The notes under the pieces: generated by a model | Seen by the model: only the letters and a program-made list of their open reading frames with translations | What the model was told of the DNA's origin: nothing | Databases searched by the model: none | Made by a program: the position numbers and the translations under genes | Part shown: piece by piece, positions 38,947 through 48,574 of the stretch | How the letters are laid out: each line of letters opens with the position of its first letter | Numbering within the stretch: the stretch's first letter is position 1 | DNA from: Escherichia coli | GTDB taxonomy: Bacteria > Pseudomonadota > Gammaproteobacteria > Enterobacterales > Enterobacteriaceae | Length of the DNA: 64,000 bases | NCBI RefSeq assembly: GCF_013122565.1 | Contig: NZ_CP053258.1 | Strand: one strand, 5' to 3'

Positions 38947-39882
38947 ATGGCACTGCCAATTCTGTTAGATTGCGACCCAGGTCATGACGATGCTATCGCA
39001 ATAGTTCTCGCCCTCGCCTCACCAGAGCTTGATGTCAAAGCAATTACGTCTTCCGCCGGAAACCAGACACCAGAAAAAACCTTACGCAATGTTCTGCGTA
39101 TGCTGACCTTGCTTAATCGCACCGATATTCCGGTAGCCGGCGGCGCGGTAAAACCGTTAATGCGTGAGTTGATTATCGCGGACAATGTGCACGGCGAAAG
39201 CGGTCTGGATGGCCCGGCATTACCGGAACCGACGTTTGCACCGCAAAACTGTACGGCGGTGGAGCTGATGGCGAAAACGCTACGTGAAAGTGCGGAACCT
39301 GTCACAATTGTGTCTACCGGACCGCAAACTAACGTTGCCTTGCTGCTCAATAGCCTCCCGGAACTGCATAGCAAAATTGCCCGTATCGTGATTATGGGCG
39401 GCGCAATGGGGCTTGGTAACTGGACGCCTGCGGCTGAATTTAATATTTACGTTGACCCGGAAGCGGCAGAAATTGTCTTCCAGTCAGGGATCCCGGTGGT
39501 GATGGCCGGTCTGGATGTTACTCACAAAGCACAAATCCACGTTGAAGACACCGAGCGTTTCCGCGCGATTGGCAACCCTGTTTCAACCATTGTTGCCGAA
39601 CTGCTGGATTTCTTCCTCGAATATCATAAAGACGAAAAATGGGGTTTTGTCGGCGCACCGCTGCATGACCCATGCACCATCGCCTGGTTGTTGAAACCGG
39701 AGTTGTTTACCACTGTTGAGCGCTGGGTTGGCGTGGAAACACAGGGGAAATATACCCAGGGTATGACGGTTGTTGATTATTATTATCTGACTGGCAATAA
39801 ACCGAATGCCACCGTAATGGTCGATGTTGATCGTCAGGGCTTTGTTGATTTACTGGCTGATCGTCTGAAATTTTACGCTTAA
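38947..39882 (+). CDS. rihA: Pyrimidine-specific ribonucleoside hydrolase RihA
   Basis: 311 aa from ATG 38947 ([16 protein letters not shown]..., nucleoside hydrolase DxDxxxDD motif); the track ORF starts upstream at 38914. Confidence 0.92.
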
Positions 39883-39965
39883 CACACGTCATTGATTAAG
39901 ATCACCACGCGTTACCTGGGTGGTCTTAATCTGTTTATCTCTTTTTCTTTCAAGATATAAATGCA

Positions 39966-41636
39966 ATGGATAATGCAGAACTCGCCATTGGTATCGATCT
40001 CGGTACTACCAATAGTTTAATTGCCGTCTGGAAAGACGGTGCCGCGCAATTAATTCCAAATAAGTTCGGTGAATATTTAACACCATCCATAATTAGCATG
40101 GATGAAAATAATCATATTTTAGTCGGAAAACCGGCTGTATCACGGCGTACTTCGCATCCGGATAAAACGGCAGCGTTATTTAAACGTGCAATGGGCAGTA
40201 ATACCAACTGGCGGTTAGGCAGCGACACATTTAACGCGCCAGAACTGTCCTCTTTGGTATTACGCTCATTAAAAGAAGATGCCGAAGAATTTCTGCAACG
40301 TCCAATTAAAGATGTGGTGATCTCCGTTCCGGCTTATTTCAGCGATGAACAACGCAAGCATACCCGTTTAGCAGCGGAGTTAGCCGGGTTAAATGCGGTA
40401 CGCTTAATTAATGAACCCACAGCAGCTGCAATGGCGTATGGCCTGCATACCCAACAAAATACCCGTTCGCTGGTGTTTGATCTCGGTGGCGGCACGTTTG
40501 ACGTTACGGTGCTTGAGTACGCCACGCCGGTGATTGAAGTTCACGCCTCCGCTGGCGACAACTTTCTTGGTGGCGAAGATTTTACCCATATGCTGGTCGA
40601 TGACGTTTTAAAGCGCGCGGATGTCGCCAGGAACACGCTTAACGAGAGTGAACTGGCAGCCTTGTACGCCTGCGTAGAAGCGGCAAAATGTAGTAATCAA
40701 TCGCCAATGCACATTCGCTGGCAGTACCAGGATGAAACGCGGGAGTGCGAATTTTACGAGAACGAACTGGAAGATTTGTGGTTGCCGCTGCTCAATCGCT
40801 TGCGAGTGCCGATTGAACAGGCGTTGCGCGATGCGCGTCTGAAGCCGAGTCAAATCGACAGTCTGGTGCTGGTTGGCGGCGCGTCACAAATGCCGCTGGT
40901 GCAGCGAATCGCCGTGCGTCTGTTTGGCAAATTACCGTATCAAAGTTACGATCCGAGCACCATTGTCGCGCTGGGCGCAGCAATCCAGGCCGCCTGCCGC
41001 TTACGCAGTGAAGATATTGAAGAAGTGATCCTCACTGATATTTGCCCTTACTCGTTGGGTGTTGAAGTTAACCGTCAGGGCGTATCCGGCATTTTCTCGC
41101 CGATTATTGAACGAAACACCACAGTACCGGTGTCGCGTGTAGAAACGTACTCGACCATGCACCCGGAGCAGGATTCAATTACGGTTAACGTCTATCAGGG
41201 AGAAAACCACAAAGTTAAAAATAACATTCTGGTGGAATCCTTCGATGTGCCGTTGAAGAAAACCGGGGCTTATCAGTCGATTGATATTCGTTTTAGTTAT
41301 GATATCAACGGCTTGCTTGAAGTTGACGTACTTCTGGAAGACGGCAGCGTTAAGTCCAGAGTCATTAATCATAGCCCGGTAACATTGAGCGCGCAGCAGA
41401 TCGAAGAGAGTCGGACGCGGTTATCCGCATTGAAAATTTATCCGCGCGATATGCTCATCAATCGCACCTTTAAAGCCAAACTGGAAGAGTTGTGGGCGCG
41501 AGCGCTGGGTGACGAGCGAGAAGAGATTGGCCGGGTGATCACCGATTTTGATGCGGCGTTGCAGTCAAACGATATGGCCCGCGTCGATGAGGTCAGGCGG
41601 CGGGCGAGCGATTATTTAGCCATTGAGATCCCATAA
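39966..41636 (+). CDS. hscC: Hsp70-family chaperone HscC
   Basis: 556 aa; Hsp70 signatures IDLGTTNS and DLGGGTFD. Confidence 0.95.
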   Translation: MDNAELAIGIDLGTTNSLIAVWKDGAAQLIPNKFGEYLTPSIISMDENNHILVGKPAVSRRTSHPDKTAALFKRAMGSNTNWRLGSDTFNAPELSSLVLRSLKEDAEEFLQRPIKDVVISVPAYFSDEQRKHTRLAAELAGLNAVRLINEPTAAAMAYGLHTQQNTRSLVFDLGGGTFDVTVLEYATPVIEVHASAGDNFLGGEDFTHMLVDDVLKRADVARNTLNESELAALYACVEAAKCSNQSPMHIRWQYQDETRECEFYENELEDLWLPLLNRLRVPIEQALRDARLKPSQIDSLVLVGGASQMPLVQRIAVRLFGKLPYQSYDPSTIVALGAAIQAACRLRSEDIEEVILTDICPYSLGVEVNRQGVSGIFSPIIERNTTVPVSRVETYSTMHPEQDSITVNVYQGENHKVKNNILVESFDVPLKKTGAYQSIDIRFSYDINGLLEVDVLLEDGSVKSRVINHSPVTLSAQQIEESRTRLSALKIYPRDMLINRTFKAKLEELWARALGDEREEIGRVITDFDAALQSNDMARVDEVRRRASDYLAIEIP

Positions 41637-41643
41637 ACACGGC

Positions 41644-41673
41644 TGCCGGATGCGGCGTAAACGCTGCATCCGG
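41644..41673. repeat. REP-like palindrome between convergent hscC and djlC
   Basis: gccggatgcggcgtaaacgctgcatccggc. Confidence 0.7.
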
Positions 41674-41694
41674 CATCGGCGCCAAAACACATCG

Positions 41695-43146
41695 TCAACT
41701 AAACAACATCGCGATTTTGCCGAGAGCATAACCTATCACCAGCACCGTTAAACTGATTTTGATAATGCCGGTAATGCTCTGTGGTTTTTCATCCTCATCA
41801 TTTTTTTCTTCATGGTTTTCAGGTGTTGGCTCATCGACATCTTCATCCTCCGGCTCGAGTTTCACTTTCGTCAACAGCATCCGGGTGATGATGGCCTCTA
41901 ATGGATGAGCATCTCCACCTTCCAGCCTTGTATTAAGACGGGCCAGCATCTCTTGTTTCGGAAACGCTTCAAGTACTACCTGTTCCGCTACCCGATACAA
42001 ATCCAGTAACGGTGAATCTTGCTCTGTCTCGCTACCGACTCTCGATTTCCACCACGCCCATGCTTTGCGCTTGAAAAATAACGATTCAATAAACGATTGA
42101 CCTAACGGCGATAATTTTCCGCTATGTAAAATTTCCGCCCATAACAGCCGCGTCCGGGCGCTCTCACCAGGAACATATTTCAACGGTTTACCTTGCACAT
42201 CAACCATGCTCTGCGCTTCGATAACCATCACTAACAGCGCGAAATAATCCGGGCAATGTTGTGCGCTCCACTGCAACAACAAATTATCGGCTTGTGTAGA
42301 TGGGTAACTCTCCCGGTATGCGCAGAGATCGGCAAGCAGGCTTTCCCCCTCGCCGCAGTACAAACGTTGTGCACACTGGTAATACCGGGCATCTTCGCTT
42401 TCTGGTTCTTCCATTTGCCACTGTTGGGCAACAGGAATGAGTTCCGCCATACCTGTTTGCACCGAGCTGTACCAGCGCAACAGTTTGCGATGTAACTTTG
42501 CATCATCAGGAATGAACCACGGACCTTCCATCGCCAAAAACGCAGTGACATAGTCAGGATGGTAACGGCAGCAACGTTCCAGCGCGAAGTAATACTCAAC
42601 AGTCTGGTTCTGCAACGCAACAGGATATTCCAGAAGGCTAAGGAAATCGAAACAATCACCAGCCTGAATGGCCTCAAGAAAAGCCTCCCTTTCTTCCTCA
42701 TCCATTCCTTCGCTGTCATTAAACGAATGCCAGTTCAAACGCTCTGCCAGCAAAGAAGCACAATTTAATGAAAGATATCGCGCTTCTATAGCGATTGCAC
42801 ACAGCGGCCAGCGTAATTGATCGACATCCTCCATGTTCCAGGTATTTAATTGCTGAATAAATTTCTGCCAGGCGGAGGGCTGAAAACGATCACTTTCTGA
42901 ATCCAGTAATGCCCTGAATGCACATAGTATTTCATGTTCAGCGGCAGCATCTTTTTCTTCATCATCTGCTTCCTCGACAGGATTTACCGCCAATCGCAAG
43001 GCCTCTTCATAGGCCTGGCGTAATGCTTTAAACCCCTGCGGATCGGTTTCGGGATGACACAACGGTAAGCGAGCAAGATAAGCCTGGCGGATAATGTCTA
43101 TTTGCGTCGTGCTTTCAATTTCGAGGATTTGCCAACATGTTTTCAT
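41695..43146 (-). CDS. djlC: J-domain-like co-chaperone DjlC (YbeV), C-terminal membrane anchor
   Basis: 483 aa; acidic linker and C-terminal hydrophobic helix; paralogous along its length to the 44516-45943 ORF. Confidence 0.88.
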
Positions 43147-43850
43147 AGGTCGCTCACATCCTTAAGCGTTACCGGGCATTCAGGCTGGACAGTCAATGGC
43201 TGCCAGGGAAGCGTGGCATAGAAACGATCGCTTCCCGCTGCCAGCTCTTCGAACATCCGACTCCCGGCGCTATCGTATTTGTACAGGGTTAGCGCCTCGC
43301 GTAACGAAGCGTTGTCTTCGCATTGAGAAGATTGCCAGTAGAGACGCCCTAGTGAATAGGCAGAAAAATAGTGCATCCAGCTGTGATAGTAATGGTGTGC
43401 TCGGACGTAGACGCGCGATTGCAGCCATAAACTCTCGTCTTCCGTCAGCCACTTGTTGAGCACACCGACCCGTGACAGAAACCCCATTCGAACATAATCC
43501 CAGGCTTTGATTCCACCTTCTCCACAGCACATAGCGGTTTGGGCAACGAATTGGGTATAAATCAACCCTCTCTCCGAGCCACCAGCAATTAATGCTTTCC
43601 ACTCTTCAGGGGAAGAGCGATGCCATGTCAGATATAAGCCAGCTAAATCATTAGCATGACCATCATCAGTCATCTGATAAATAGTCTGAATTAAATCATC
43701 ACGATTATTTATTCCCCAGGATGATGAGAGATCGAATTCTTTTATCCCAGTATACATTTTCGGCGAGTCATGCGCGGGTTTGCAACCCTGATTAAGTATT
43801 TCCATTGGCGCAGAAAGCGCAAAAAGAAGATATTGTTCTTCCTTATTCAT
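43143..43850 (-). CDS. ybeU: DUF1266-family protein YbeU
   Basis: 235 aa; 4-bp overlap with djlC start; paralog of the 45940-46647 ORF. Confidence 0.88.
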
Positions 43851-43951
43851 TTGTTAATAATCCCTTAAGTGCATTAACTGACTACTTTTTTATTATTGAT
43901 GAGTATAAACTTGACGCTTTCAAAATAAAAAGAAAATCGAATCATTCACAG

Positions 43952-44506
43952 ATGAATAAAAAATTAATGTATATATTCGCAATATTTATAGTTGCAGCAA
44001 TTACCTGTATTAGCCAACCCAAGAAAACGACGTTGCGTGATAAAGCCATGGCGAATTATGCCTTTGATTATTTAAGCTCACCAGGCAGTCTTCCATTCAC
44101 CACGGCAGCCACGGAGCTTTCCGCGATTCATGGTCACTCAACGTCGCAATATCGCCTTGGCGAATTTTATCTTCATGGTAGCGACGGGAAACCACTGGAT
44201 TATACACAGGCGAGATACTGGTATGAGCAATCAGCAGAACAGGAAAATCCACGCGCGCAAAGTAAACTGGGGTGGATCTACCTCAAAGGTCTGGGGGTCA
44301 AACCCGACACCCGTAAAGCAATTCTCTGGTATAAGGAAGCAGCTGAACAAGGGTATGCTCATGCTCAATATACTTTAGGTTTGATCTACAGAAATGGCTC
44401 AGGTATTAATGTTAACCATTATGAATCTCAAAAATGGTTAAAACTGGCCGCCAAACAACATTACAAAAATGCGGAAAGATTACTTGCCGGGCTTCCCGCA
44501 CATTAA
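43952..44506 (+). CDS. ybeT: Sel1-repeat protein YbeT
   Basis: 184 aa from ATG 43952 (N-terminal hydrophobic segment, then Sel1/TPR-like repeats); the track ORF starts upstream at 43805. Confidence 0.8.
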
Positions 44507-44515
44507 CGTCGACGG

Positions 44516-45943
44516 TCACCCGAACAGATGGAGTATTTTCCCTATCAAACCAGCAAAGATAAAAATATAGAAAATAATTTTGATGACGCCCAGACAGCCC
44601 GGCCCACCATCATCAACGGGCATTGGTTGCGGTTGCGGCTCCGGTTCGACGGTTTGCTTCTCGGCAAAATTCGCCGACTGAATTAATAACCGTCGAATAA
44701 TTAATGCCTCCAGAGGACAACGATCTTCTGCATCAAGGCGGCTCACAATCGGCATTAATGATTCTTCTGTAGGTTGGCTGGCCTGCACTAATTGTTTGGC
44801 AACTAGATATAATGGCCATAAGGTATGTTCTGTATCACGCGTGAGTGAGATCCGCGGCTTACGTCCTTTGTGCAAAACCATCTCGACCAGTGAACGCCCC
44901 AGAGCAGAGAGTTTTTCATCGCTGAGTATTTCGTATAAATGAAAACGCGTACGGGCGCTGTCGCCGGGGACATAAAGTAGCGGTTTTCCCTGGTCGTTAA
45001 CCAGTTCACGAGCTTCAATCATCATCACCACTAACGGGTAATAATCGACCCGATGCTGACGACACCATTGCAACATTAAAGCATCCGCCTGGGTGGAGGG
45101 ATACTCGCGCCAGTAGTCACAAAGTTCTGCCAGCAGGCTTTCGCCTTCTCCACAATAGACGCGTTGCGCGTATTCATAATAACGCGCATCTTCATTATCA
45201 GGTTCAGCTTCCCGCCACGACCGGGCGTAATCCAGGAGTTCGGGGATATCCAGGCGACCTGCGCTATACCAGCGGAGTAAATTTCTGTGCAGTTTTGCAT
45301 CATCGGGGATAATCACTGCGCGATGTTGCGATAAATACAATGTCAGCCATTCTGGATGCGATGACCAAATCCGGGCGAACATTTGGTAAAAATCGATGGT
45401 GTCATTTTGCACGGCAACGGGCAGATGCAGAATGGTCTGGAAGTTAAAAACATTTCCCTTCGCAATGGCATATAAAAAGGATTCCAGTTCTTCTTCGTCT
45501 ATTTCCCCGGTGTTTTCCTCCTGCAACCACCGCAATCTTTCTGCTAATAACACCACACACTCGAAGGATAAATGGGCAGTGTTCATGGCGATTGTGCACA
45601 GCGACCAGCGTAATTCATCAATCTCTTCCATTGAGCAATAATTTAATTGCTGAATGAATCGCTGCCAGGCGGAAGGCAGAAAACGTTCGCTATCAGAAGC
45701 AAGTAAAGCACGAAAGGCGAGCAGAATTTCATGTTCTGCTACCTCATATTCTTCTGGTTGCCAAACAGATTTAGCAGGCGACTGCGCAATCCGTAGCGCC
45801 TCCTCATACGCCTGACGAAGTTGTTTAAAACCCTGCGGATCGGTTTCTGGATGAAAGGACGGTAACAGCGCCAGATAAGCGCGGCGGATAATATCGACGT
45901 CAGTCGTTTCCTCTATGTTGAGGATCTTCCAGCAATTTTTCAT
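44516..45943 (-). CDS. djlB: J-domain-like co-chaperone DjlB (YbeS), C-terminal membrane anchor
   Basis: 475 aa; paralog of djlC. Confidence 0.88.
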
Positions 45944-46647
45944 AGGTCGCTCATATCCTTAAGCGTTTCAGGGCATGCAGAATAGTAAGCCAATGGTTGC
46001 CAGGACAAGGTAGGGTAATACGCATCATCACTGGCAAATAATTGATAAAACATATCATTGCCGGAATCGTCGTATTCTTTACGCGCTAAGAATTCACGTA
46101 ATAACTGAAGATTATCATCTTCGGGAGACTGCCAATATTGCCGACCAAAGGTATAACCGGCAAAGTATTGCTGCCAGTTACTATAATAACGTAGCGCCCG
46201 TAGATGAATGCGCGACTGGATCCATAGACTTTCTTCTTCGCTCAACCAGTTATTAAGTACGCCCATTCGGCTTAAAAAACCCATCCGGACATAATCCCAG
46301 GCTTTGATTCCCCCTTCGCCACAGCATTCGGCGGTGCTGGCGACAAATTGCGCATAAGCCTGACCTTGCTCATTTAGTTCAGCAAGATAGTCACGCCATT
46401 CACACGGAGAATAACGAAACCAGCGGTGATAAAACCCTGCCAACCGAGCGGCATGACCGTTATCGATCATTCGGTGAATTGTGCGCAGCAGGTCATCACG
46501 GTCATCAATTCCCCATGAGGAAGAAAGGTCAAAAAAGCATGTACCTAAATACATTTTGGGAGATGAATGCGAAGGTAAACAGCATTCATTGCGTATTTCC
46601 ATCGGAGTGGAAAGTGCAAACAATATTTTTTGCGACCCCATGTCCAT
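45940..46647 (-). CDS. ybeR: DUF1266-family protein YbeR
   Basis: 235 aa; 4-bp overlap with djlB start; paralog of ybeU. Confidence 0.88.
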
Positions 46648-46662
46648 ATAATTTATCCTTAA

Positions 46663-46681
46663 ACATTCATTTAATGAATGT
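46663..46681. promoter_or_regulatory. 19-bp perfect palindrome (acattcatt-t-aatgaatgt) just upstream of the ybeR RBS; candidate operator
   Basis: 9-bp inverted arms with 1-bp spacer, 16 bp upstream of the ybeR start codon in the divergent ybeR/ybeQ control region. Confidence 0.5.
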
Positions 46682-46810
46682 AAACTACATTTCGAGACTC
46701 AGTTATTTATACTTTTCTGACGCAACATAATACGCATAAAATAAGGCTTACGCAAAAATGGAACACATAAAAATATAATATGTTTTATCTACAACCATAA
46801 GGAAATGATA

Positions 46811-47788
46811 ATGATTTTTACGTCAAGTTGCTGCGATAATTTATCAATAGATGAGATTATCGAACGTGCTGAAAAAGGCGATTGCGAGGCTCAATATATT
46901 GTTGGGTTTTATTATAATCGCGATAGCGCAATTGACTCTCCGGACGACGAAAAGGCCTTTTACTGGCTGAAGCTGGCCGCTGAGCAAGGTCATTGTGAAG
47001 CACAATATTCCTTAGGGCAAAAGTATACCGAGGATAAAAGCCGTCATAAAGATAATGAGCAAGCCATCTTTTGGCTGAAAAAAGCTGCCCTACAAGGCCA
47101 TACTTTCGCTTCCAACGCCCTTGGCTGGATACTGGATCGTGGAGAAGACCCCAACTATAAAGAAGCGGTTGCCTGGTATCAGATAGCCGCGGAGAGCGGA
47201 ATGTCTTATGCGCAAAATAATCTTGGGTGGATGTACAGAAATGGCAACGGAGTCGCACAAGACTATACGCTGGCATTTTTCTGGTACAAACAAGCTGCAT
47301 TACAAGGCCATAGTGACGCGCAAAACAATCTGGCCGATCTTTATGAAGACGGAAAAGGCGTTGCTCAAAACGAGACACTCGCCGCATTCTGGTATTTGAA
47401 AAGCGCACAGCAGGGTAATCGGCATGCTCAGTTTCAAATTGCATGGGATTATAACGCTGGCGAAGGGGTGGACCAGGACTATAAGCAAGCGATGTACTGG
47501 TATCTGAAGGCTGCCGCTCAGGGGAGCGTCGGCGCTTACGTCAACATCGGTTATATGTATAAACACGGACAAGGCGTTGAGAAAGATTATCAGGCCGCCT
47601 TTGAATGGTTTACGAAAGCCGCTGAATGCAATGACGCCACAGCCTGGTATAACCTGGCCATTATGTATCACTACGGAGAAGGAAGACCTGTCGATCTCCG
47701 ACAGGCTCTCGACCTGTATCGTAAAGTTCAGTCATCCGGAACCAGAGATGTCAGTCAAGAAATTCGTGAGATTGAAGATTTACTGTAG
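46811..47788 (+). CDS. ybeQ: Sel1-repeat protein YbeQ
   Basis: 325 aa from ATG 46811 (better RBS spacing than 46805); tandem Sel1 repeats. Confidence 0.85.
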   Translation: MIFTSSCCDNLSIDEIIERAEKGDCEAQYIVGFYYNRDSAIDSPDDEKAFYWLKLAAEQGHCEAQYSLGQKYTEDKSRHKDNEQAIFWLKKAALQGHTFASNALGWILDRGEDPNYKEAVAWYQIAAESGMSYAQNNLGWMYRNGNGVAQDYTLAFFWYKQAALQGHSDAQNNLADLYEDGKGVAQNETLAAFWYLKSAQQGNRHAQFQIAWDYNAGEGVDQDYKQAMYWYLKAAAQGSVGAYVNIGYMYKHGQGVEKDYQAAFEWFTKAAECNDATAWYNLAIMYHYGEGRPVDLRQALDLYRKVQSSGTRDVSQEIREIEDLL

Positions 47789-47799
47789 AGATAAAAACA

Positions 47800-47831
47800 A
47801 GGGCCGGGGAATTTCATTCGGCCCATATTCT
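47800..47831. terminator. Hairpin between convergent ybeQ and ybeL (possible bidirectional terminator)
   Basis: Stem gggccg / cggccc with A-rich 5' and T-rich 3' flanks. Confidence 0.5.
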
Positions 47832-47857
47832 ATTTATTACTCTGCGTAATCAGACTA

Positions 47858-48340
47858 TTACGGCTCAAACGGGCGTCTCTGGAACTGATCATGACCACAT
47901 TTCGGGCATAGCGTCAGCACTTCCGGTGTGTAGATCGGGAGATGGAAGTGACATTTCTCGCAGACCAGATTCCCCAGCCCTACCACTTCTCCGCTGTGAT
48001 AAACCCCATGATGATTGAGGTCCTGGAAAACTTCGCGCCATTCAAGCTGCGTTTTATCGGTGATGTCTGCCAGCTCCTGCCATAAGCTTTCTTTAATCAC
48101 CCGCATAAAGACGCTGTCAGATTCTTCTTTCAGGCTCTCTTCATAGCTCATGGCGAACTCTTCCAGGTCACGTCTGACAGCTCGCGTCAGCTCATCGACC
48201 TCGGTTCGCGTTAACTCCCCTGTTTTTATTACGCGCTCGCGCGCCTGTTCCACCAGTGCGTCGATATCACGTTCGCCATTGCGCAGACGTTCGCTCAGTG
48301 ACGCGACCAGTTCACGGTAATATTGAGCAACCTTGTTCAT
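47858..48340 (-). CDS. ybeL: Zinc-ribbon protein YbeL (DUF1451)
   Basis: 160 aa; C-terminal CxxC...CxxC. Confidence 0.88.
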   Translation of the reverse strand: MNKVAQYYRELVASLSERLRNGERDIDALVEQARERVIKTGELTRTEVDELTRAVRRDLEEFAMSYEESLKEESDSVFMRVIKESLWQELADITDKTQLEWREVFQDLNHHGVYHSGEVVGLGNLVCEKCHFHLPIYTPEVLTLCPKCGHDQFQRRPFEP

Positions 48341-48574
48341 CGTTTCATCTCCCGGGTCGTTAACTGACTATAATAATAGACGTTCTTTGTTCCTTGCTTT
48401 GCTAATACGCCCACAAACTCTGTAAATTAATGTATGAATAATCCGGGCATCATTTCAACGTCGAGTGCGCGAAAGGCTGTTTTGACGCGGACGTTTGGGC
48501 TATGCTATGCGGATCTGAAAAACCACCTCAACGCTACATTTGTAGCCGTATTGAAAACAGGACCACTGGCTGCC

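Follow-up and report, generated by a model that had tools for sequence, protein, structure and literature searches.

Among the three Hsp70 chaperones of Escherichia coli, HscC is the one about which least is understood, and the only phenotypes reported for it are sensitivity to Cd2+ and to ultraviolet light. Here we explore the hscC locus in a 64,000-nucleotide stretch of E. coli DNA (contig NZ_CP053258.1, hereafter the window), in which hscC stands next to two genes for J-domain proteins (djlC and djlB), two for DUF1266 proteins (ybeU and ybeR) and two for Sel1-repeat proteins (ybeT and ybeQ). The closest described system is the HscC-DjlB/DjlC system of E. coli itself which, as far as the work of Kluck et al. 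(2002) is conveyed by a 2021 review (PMC8215388), is identical in its genes and their order. In that account of Kluck et al. (2002) the ATPase of HscC is stimulated by DjlC, whereas DnaJ, CbpA and HscB have no such effect. The review further describes insertion of DjlC into the inner membrane, 50% identity of DjlB to DjlC along the entire length of DjlB, a tail anchor in both proteins, and Cd2+ sensitivity of hscC mutants as well as of djlB djlC mutants (PMC8215388). DjlB and DjlC carry HPE instead of the HPD motif, a variant that is regarded as functional with HscC (PMC13254874, PMC10410713). YbeQ, YbeR, DjlB, YbeU and DjlC of S. Typhimurium LT2 have been noted as a single gene cassette, with E. 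coli K-12 MG1655 as the sole other encoder among the organisms studied (PMC6935094). Earlier publications already cover the paralogy of DjlB and DjlC as well as their pairing with HscC, and their duplication adds nothing new. In the literature on HscC-DjlB/DjlC that we examined, ybeU/ybeR and ybeT/ybeQ are not treated as parts of the system, PMC6935094 noting the cassette only, and in the literature searched DUF1266 is mentioned solely in PMC7582179.

The HscA-HscB-IscU system offers an analogy, since there too a specialised Hsp70 has its own J-protein and few clients; DUF1266 is proposed here to take the position of IscU. There is no sequence or fold relation between the two systems, however, and HscB is soluble whereas Djl proteins are membrane-anchored and carry a TPR-like domain. 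J-proteins with TPRs are also known elsewhere, DNAJC7 being an example. The likeness of the Djl domain to eukaryotic TPR co-chaperones and receptors (Sti1/Hop, CHIP, Tom70, PEX5) exists at the level of the fold only, at 6-12% identity.

An earlier note on this DNA had left the DUF1266 proteins unexplained by the chaperone role of the locus. Judged from gene neighbourhoods, DUF1266 is instead a conserved third component of HscC-type systems in many bacteria, a strong link that apparently has not been discussed before. The locus is the HscC chaperone island of Escherichia, and we consider it likely that in it a core triad of HscC, Djl and DUF1266 has undergone duplication of its DUF1266-Djl bicistron, with DUF1266 acting as a client or adaptor docked on Djl.

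A triad of HscC, Djl and DUF1266

With an alignment of 12 DUF1266 sequences, a scan of one genome per species yielded 75 loci, which were annotated with the proteins of the window. About 65 of these contain one DUF1266 gene, a Djl gene directly downstream, usually with an overlap, and an HscC homologue within a few kilobases (kb), in convergent orientation where this was checked. The rest consist of the two-pair loci of Escherichia, of truncated loci and of loci in which HscC was not detected. The triad occurs in Pseudomonas (38 loci), Gilliamella (17), Erwinia, Pectobacterium, Rahnella, Yersinia nurmii, Limnobaculum, Pragia and Brenneria; Leminorella possesses the DUF1266-Djl pair, and no HscC was detected within 10 kb of it. 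Sel1 genes were not found within the 10-kb flanks of the 75 loci outside Escherichia and Salmonella, and no other flanking gene family is common to more than three genera in these cassette neighbourhoods. The earlier note had let its case turn on whether DUF1266 genes accompany Djl genes in other genomes: the two are adjacent in essentially every locus examined, down to 22-25% protein identity.

The association extends to distant relatives. DUF1266 proteins that are 22-25% identical to YbeU adjoin an approximately 920-amino acid (aa) DnaJ/DjlB_C protein and a 556-aa Hsp70, and at one distant locus the genes for Hsp70, a J/TPR/DjlB_C protein and DUF1266 lie on a single strand. Paenibacillus has a J/TPR/DjlB_C gene that overlaps the DUF1266 gene downstream of it. 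Natural fusions were also found. The 497-aa protein P0258 (L085 233-1726; numbers with L denote loci of our collection) consists of a Djl-type J-domain, then TPR repeats, then DUF1266; its J-domain contains IHHPEDDPEGF and matches that of DjlC with E=3e-14, and a search with P0258 leads to a large Firmicute family with DnaJ, DjlB_C_2nd (PF27158) and TPR. In Bacillus sp. FJAT-52991, P0329 (L093 6001-8334) is a fusion of DjlB_C, TPR and DUF1266, and its gene is overlapped by an upstream gene for a 567-aa Hsp70. The independent fusion and the Firmicute loci indicate that Hsp70, Djl and DUF1266 have long been associated and that TPR repeats are recurrent in this association.

Sequences 95-98% identical to YbeU were encountered in a Paenibacillus sp. 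USDA918EY contig (L012) and in the nematode Trichuris trichiura (AFDB A0A077ZGN2, annotated as 'DnaJ like subfamily C member 13'); the likeliest explanation for these is contamination by E. coli or wrongly fused gene models.

The proteins of the triad

The gene hscC (39966..41636, plus strand) encodes a specialised Hsp70 of 556 aa and converges on djlC across a gap of 58 base pairs (bp). Residues 7-482 of HscC match the NCBIfam models for DnaK and HscA (E~1e-113 to 1e-115) with scores that stay under the equivalog cut-offs, which is the expectation for a divergent paralogue, and Pfam HSP70 matches HscC orthologues.

Both Djl genes lie on the minus strand, djlC at 41695..43146 (483 aa) and djlB at 44516..45943 (475 aa). 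In DjlC a J-domain with HPE instead of HPD is combined with a cytosolic domain of TPR-like helices and with a transmembrane anchor at the C-terminus (about residues 457-483). The match of residues 4-47 to Pfam DnaJ is weak (E=0.038), and the HPE motif is shared by 79 of 83 Djl homologues. The hydropathy scan gave one hydrophobic segment for each protein, at the C-terminus (457-483 in DjlC, 446-475 in DjlB, the tail anchor of the latter), and no N-terminal signal. The cytosolic domain of DjlC was modelled as a TPR-like solenoid in the predicted structure; Pfam TPR models do not match E. coli DjlC, and NCBIfam holds no model for Djl or DUF1266. Djl proteins of other genera are about 900 aa long and end in two to three hydrophobic segments resembling DUF805 (weak Pfam DUF805 match), with an 'RRLHD/RRLND' motif in this membrane end (L022 3081-5783, L041 10690-13377 and similar loci). 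The form of about 480 aa with a single anchor is specific to the group of Escherichia, Salmonella, Citrobacter and Klebsiella.

The DUF1266 proteins YbeU (43143..43850) and YbeR (45940..46647), both encoded on the minus strand, have 235 aa each. Residues 41-216 of YbeU match positions 2-175 of the 175 of Pfam PF06889 (E=7.8e-45). The AlphaFold2 (AF2) model of YbeU is all-helical, with a predicted local distance difference test score (pLDDT) of 92.5 and a predicted template modelling score (pTM) of 0.90; no solved structure related to the DUF1266 fold was found. Invariant residues of the family include W45, R50, G113, R121, R127, W158, G168, W172 and W216, while H65, W117, D118, E139 and Y161 are near-invariant. 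The extreme C-terminus is conserved as well, as [FYV]DWS or, in enterics, [VM]SDL.

Duplication of the DUF1266-Djl bicistron

DjlC and DjlB align over their full length, with 53% identity and 69% positives over 427 aa (E=2e-156), and YbeU and YbeR are 58% identical over all 235 aa without a gap (E=4e-103). The genes are thus the two pairs of paralogues that the earlier note had recognised, with open reading frames at the positions given above, and the 20-residue block it had seen in both DUF1266 proteins is present in the gapless alignment. It was also right on the junctions: in both pairs the stop codon of the DUF1266 gene overlaps the start codon of the Djl gene as ATGA, and each junction string occurs once, at 43148 and at 45945 on the minus strand. 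The DNA of the two pairs is alike only in patches of 66-68% identity, which indicates that the duplication is old.

Salmonella (L005) has the order ybeL, a ybeQ-like Sel1 gene, two DUF1266-Djl pairs 11 bp apart and a convergent hscC, with no ybeT. Citrobacter enshiensis (L083) has a Salmonella-like layout, with the pairs 72 bp apart and no ybeT between them, and an E. fergusonii-like contig (L084) has the layout of E. coli including ybeT. Neighbour-joining trees were built separately for Djl and DUF1266. In both, an HscC-proximal clade holds YbeU or DjlC with their Salmonella and Citrobacter counterparts and a distal clade holds YbeR or DjlB with Citrobacter; the bootstrap values of the proximal and distal clades in the Djl tree are 97 and 89, and the DUF1266 tree is in agreement. 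The single pair of Klebsiella spallanzanii groups with the distal, djlB-ybeR-like clade. Taken together, the two-clade trees and the double pairs of Salmonella and Citrobacter indicate that the duplicated unit is the DUF1266-Djl bicistron, and that it was duplicated as a unit before Escherichia, Salmonella and Citrobacter diverged.

The ratio of nonsynonymous to synonymous substitution rates (dN/dS), measured relative to the E. fergusonii-like locus, lies at 0.04-0.14 in each of the seven genes of the island, which points to purifying selection. Divergence from Salmonella is 2-4 times that of HscC, and 6-10 times that of RihA, for Djl, DUF1266 and YbeQ.

Two side observations concern additional genes at related loci. 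Salmonella (L005 13951-15189) has an extra gene for 412 aa, without a Pfam match, between hscC and rihA, which is absent from the window. Escherichia sp. MOD1-EC7003 (L008 3648-5986) has a third Djl-like gene between ybeL and ybeQ, without a DUF1266 gene; it is split into a 93-aa open reading frame with an HPE J-domain and a 344-aa one with a C-terminal hydrophobic tail, and downstream of it lies a gene for 321 aa with a signal-peptide-like start.

The Sel1-repeat genes

The earlier note had proposed that a three-gene module of J-protein, DUF1266 and Sel1-repeat genes was duplicated in tandem, each pair being followed by a divergent Sel1 gene. The Sel1 genes are indeed divergent, but each lies upstream of its own DUF1266 gene and does not follow the pair. 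The gene ybeT (43952..44506, plus strand, start according to RefSeq; the longest open reading frame begins at 43805) encodes a Sel1-repeat protein of 184 aa and is separated from ybeU by an AT-rich divergent control region (43851..43951, 26.7% guanine-plus-cytosine, GC). Likewise ybeQ (46811..47788, plus strand, alternative start 46805), which encodes a Sel1-repeat protein of about 325 aa, is separated from ybeR by an AT-rich divergent control region (46648..46810, 26% GC). PF08238 is recorded for YbeT orthologues, and YbeT and YbeQ give partial matches to Sel1-type NCBIfam models. In the hydropathy scan YbeT has an N-terminal hydrophobic segment (residues 2-23), so that this protein is probably exported, while YbeQ has none and looks cytosolic.

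In its fullest form this reading would have a Sel1 gene divergent from the DUF1266-Djl pair duplicated along with it, and ybeT later lost in the Salmonella/Citrobacter lineage. The two units of Escherichia are alike in order and orientation, each with its AT-rich divergent spacer; the best non-orthologous matches of YbeT among those tested are of the YbeQ family (123-139 bits, phmmer); and the recurrence of TPR in Djl-type proteins makes a Sel1/TPR partner plausible. We nevertheless consider a duplicated three-gene module unlikely. Apart from the absence of ybeT between the pairs in Salmonella and Citrobacter, the word-indexed search found YbeT orthologues solely in Escherichia, besides generic Sel1 proteins, whereas YbeQ has orthologues in Salmonella and Citrobacter (357-426 bits). 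YbeT and YbeQ are alike only as Sel1 repeats, at 29-40% identity (mostly 33-37%) and solely repeat against repeat, and differ in length and in the export or anchor segment of YbeT. The reverse search with YbeQ ranks unrelated Sel1 proteins above YbeT (119 vs 70 bits), the scores being asymmetric and driven by repeat number, and the cassettes of other genera have no Sel1 gene nearby. The Sel1 genes thus appear to be local additions, ybeQ being shared with Salmonella and Citrobacter and ybeT restricted to Escherichia.

A possible role of DUF1266

The stop/start overlap suggests translational coupling of DUF1266 and Djl. YbeU and DjlC, joined by a 30-residue linker and modelled by AF2 as a single chain from 16 paired sequences, gave a pTM of 0.72, with low confidence limited to the linker, the acidic loops and the segment that precedes the anchor. 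By rough reasoning an unplaced YbeU would cap the pTM at about 0.55, so the value suggests one assembly. From the stop/start overlap, the joint duplication, the natural fusions and the fused model we infer that DUF1266 and Djl may form a complex.

The mechanism that we propose runs as follows. The core consists of an HscC-type Hsp70, a membrane-anchored Djl (HPE J-domain, TPR-like domain, C-terminal anchor) and DUF1266, whose gene adjoins that of Djl, directly upstream and with the stop/start overlap in the Gammaproteobacteria examined. In the ancestor of Escherichia, Salmonella and Citrobacter, Djl was already a tail-anchored protein of about 480 aa when the bicistron was duplicated in tandem. 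Purifying selection has since maintained both copies, although their proteins have drifted apart to 51-59% identity, so that one HscC came to be served by two DUF1266-Djl pairs. Each DUF1266 protein, made together with its own Djl, would dock on the TPR-like domain of that Djl, possibly via the conserved C-terminal tail, and would be a dedicated client or adaptor that Djl gives to HscC at the membrane, as HscB gives IscU to HscA. The two pairs would represent two specificities. Linkage across distant phyla, fusions and joint duplication make YbeU and YbeR candidates for the missing client or adaptor of HscC and, if this is true, the two DUF1266-Djl pairs of E. coli would be alternative specificity modules for a single Hsp70. 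That the locus holds two membrane-anchored co-chaperone sets for one Hsp70, as the earlier note had it, fits the published view.

A more far-reaching version is that DUF1266 is an obligate third subunit of HscC-class Hsp70 machines in Proteobacteria and Firmicutes, a client or specificity factor whose C-terminal tail lies in the TPR-like solenoid of Djl, with the two pairs, and perhaps YbeQ, forming alternative specificity modules. We put this forward tentatively, as an idea that falls somewhat short of the balance of probability.

Several points weigh against a client or adaptor role of DUF1266 within an HscC system. The surveyed loci were gathered by a DUF1266 query and not from the side of HscC, and at the Paenibacillus locus the surrounding 6 kb contain no Hsp70 gene. 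That DjlB works with HscC is assumed on grounds of similarity and proximity, DjlC alone having been assayed (PMC8215388). The pTM of the fused model is no more than suggestive of an assembly of YbeU and DjlC. Pfam domains of 41 multidomain DUF1266 proteins include Cu_amine_oxidN1 (8 proteins), TPR (4-6), SLH (3) and DnaJ (1), and many distant DUF1266 domains are thus fused to extracytoplasmic Cu_amine_oxidN1 or SLH and not to chaperone parts, which indicates that the domain has a role of its own that does not necessarily involve an Hsp70. Finally, since the island is missing from about 19% of E. coli genomes, any function it has must be conditional.

DUF1266 could also be a negative modulator that binds Djl and blocks its access to HscC, as CbpM does in the case of CbpA. 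The genetic pattern is like that of cbpA-cbpM (PMC8215388), and co-occurrence with Djl is strict. The arrangement differs, however, in that cbpM lies downstream of cbpA whereas ybeU lies upstream of djlC. No sequence or fold likeness between CbpM and DUF1266 turned up, although no search was aimed at CbpM. DUF1266 is better conserved than Djl, with 38-44% identity to distant enterobacterial orthologues versus 27-31%, has many invariant aromatic and charged residues, and also occurs outside chaperone contexts, fused to unrelated extracellular modules. This conservation, the invariant residues and the other fusions fit a domain with a ligand or activity of its own better than a pure inhibitor, and a CbpM-like role has in our judgement only a small chance of being correct.

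Presence, loss and silencing in E. coli

The island proper (39883..47856, 7,974 bp) runs from the stop codon of rihA to that of ybeL and holds seven genes in the order hscC-djlC-ybeU-ybeT-djlB-ybeR-ybeQ. Its limits were set by alignment to the island-less E. coli CU532-9 (L003), which aligns up to 39882 and again from 47857 and has a 43-bp hairpin resembling a repetitive extragenic palindromic element between rihA and ybeL (L003 5958-6001). The presence of its parts was counted in 5426 complete E. coli genomes, requiring a match that covers at least 80% of the query. This gave 4376 genomes with hscC (about 19% being without), 4268 with djlC-ybeU, 3712 with djlB-ybeR (a further approximately 12% lack most of djlB-ybeR) and 3658 with the whole 8.5-kb segment. 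Partial losses also occur, as a deletion of window positions 44644-47450 from the 3' end of djlB to the middle of ybeQ (L002) and as an IS5-associated loss from lnt to the middle of ybeQ (L004). As Salmonella, Citrobacter and E. fergusonii have the island at the same site, its absence in E. coli represents loss.

One could take djlB-ybeR for a redundant copy on its way to gradual loss, with no function distinct from that of djlC-ybeU. It is the rarer pair in E. coli, it is hit by the L002 deletion, Klebsiella spallanzanii retains one pair only, and the published phenotype needed loss of both djl genes (PMC8215388). Both pairs have been retained since before the split of Escherichia and Salmonella, however, and dN/dS is about 0.1 for djlB and ybeR. 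The one pair of Klebsiella sits in the distal clade, which argues that the djlB-ybeR-like copy is not the disposable one, and the 41-49% of residues that differ between the paralogues leave room for distinct specificity. We regard mere redundancy as decidedly improbable.

The island is AT-richer than its flanks, as the earlier note had remarked, with 46.9% GC versus 51.3% for the window and 26-27% in both divergent spacers. Transcripts of ybeT and of ybeU-djlC (as hscD) are SlyA-induced and flagged as part of the H-NS regulon (PMC5797941), and in an hns mutant a DUF1266 gene of E. coli 042 is approximately 300-fold derepressed at 25 °C (PMC7582179). The island is H-NS-silenced and dispensable in E. 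coli. The consensus scan of 39800-48450 found no strong sigma-70 consensus sites in the two AT-rich divergent spacers, and 5 consensus-like sites overall versus 13.2±3.5 in shuffled sequences, a scan that is uninformative for H-NS-silenced promoters.

That the island arrived by horizontal transfer as a cassette for conflict or anti-phage defence, with arms-race diversification behind the duplication, is a highly improbable reading: it would suit an accessory, AT-rich, H-NS-silenced region found in unrelated genomic contexts across genera, the faster divergence of Djl, DUF1266 and YbeQ relative to HscC, and the appearance of ybeT among the top positive hits for resistance to phage Arnold in a transposon-directed insertion site sequencing (TraDIS) screen of E. 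coli K-12, but the Keio knockout of ybeT was lysed by phage like the wild type (both bioRxiv 10.1101/2025.12.01.691526), dN/dS is low and not elevated, the shared chromosomal site in Escherichia, Salmonella and Citrobacter indicates long vertical inheritance, and the best-ranked matches of a literature search contained no link between HscC and defence. PADLOC gave no significant match for HscC, Djl or DUF1266 and only marginal, repeat-type matches for the Sel1 proteins, with no stretch passing alone, and PHROGs gave none for Djl or DUF1266; for want of PADLOC or PHROG support the defence reading was set aside.

A megablast search with 39900-48400 returned E. coli chromosomes with a matching arrangement at 97-98% identity, in which RefSeq names the genes hscC (molecular chaperone HscC), djlC (co-chaperone DjlC), ybeU and ybeR (DUF1266), ybeT and ybeQ (Sel1/TPR) and djlB (J domain-containing protein). 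Of 5425 E. coli records only 1 reaches at least 99% identity to this segment and most lie at 95-99%, so that the lineage of the window seems to be a somewhat unusual one within Escherichia.

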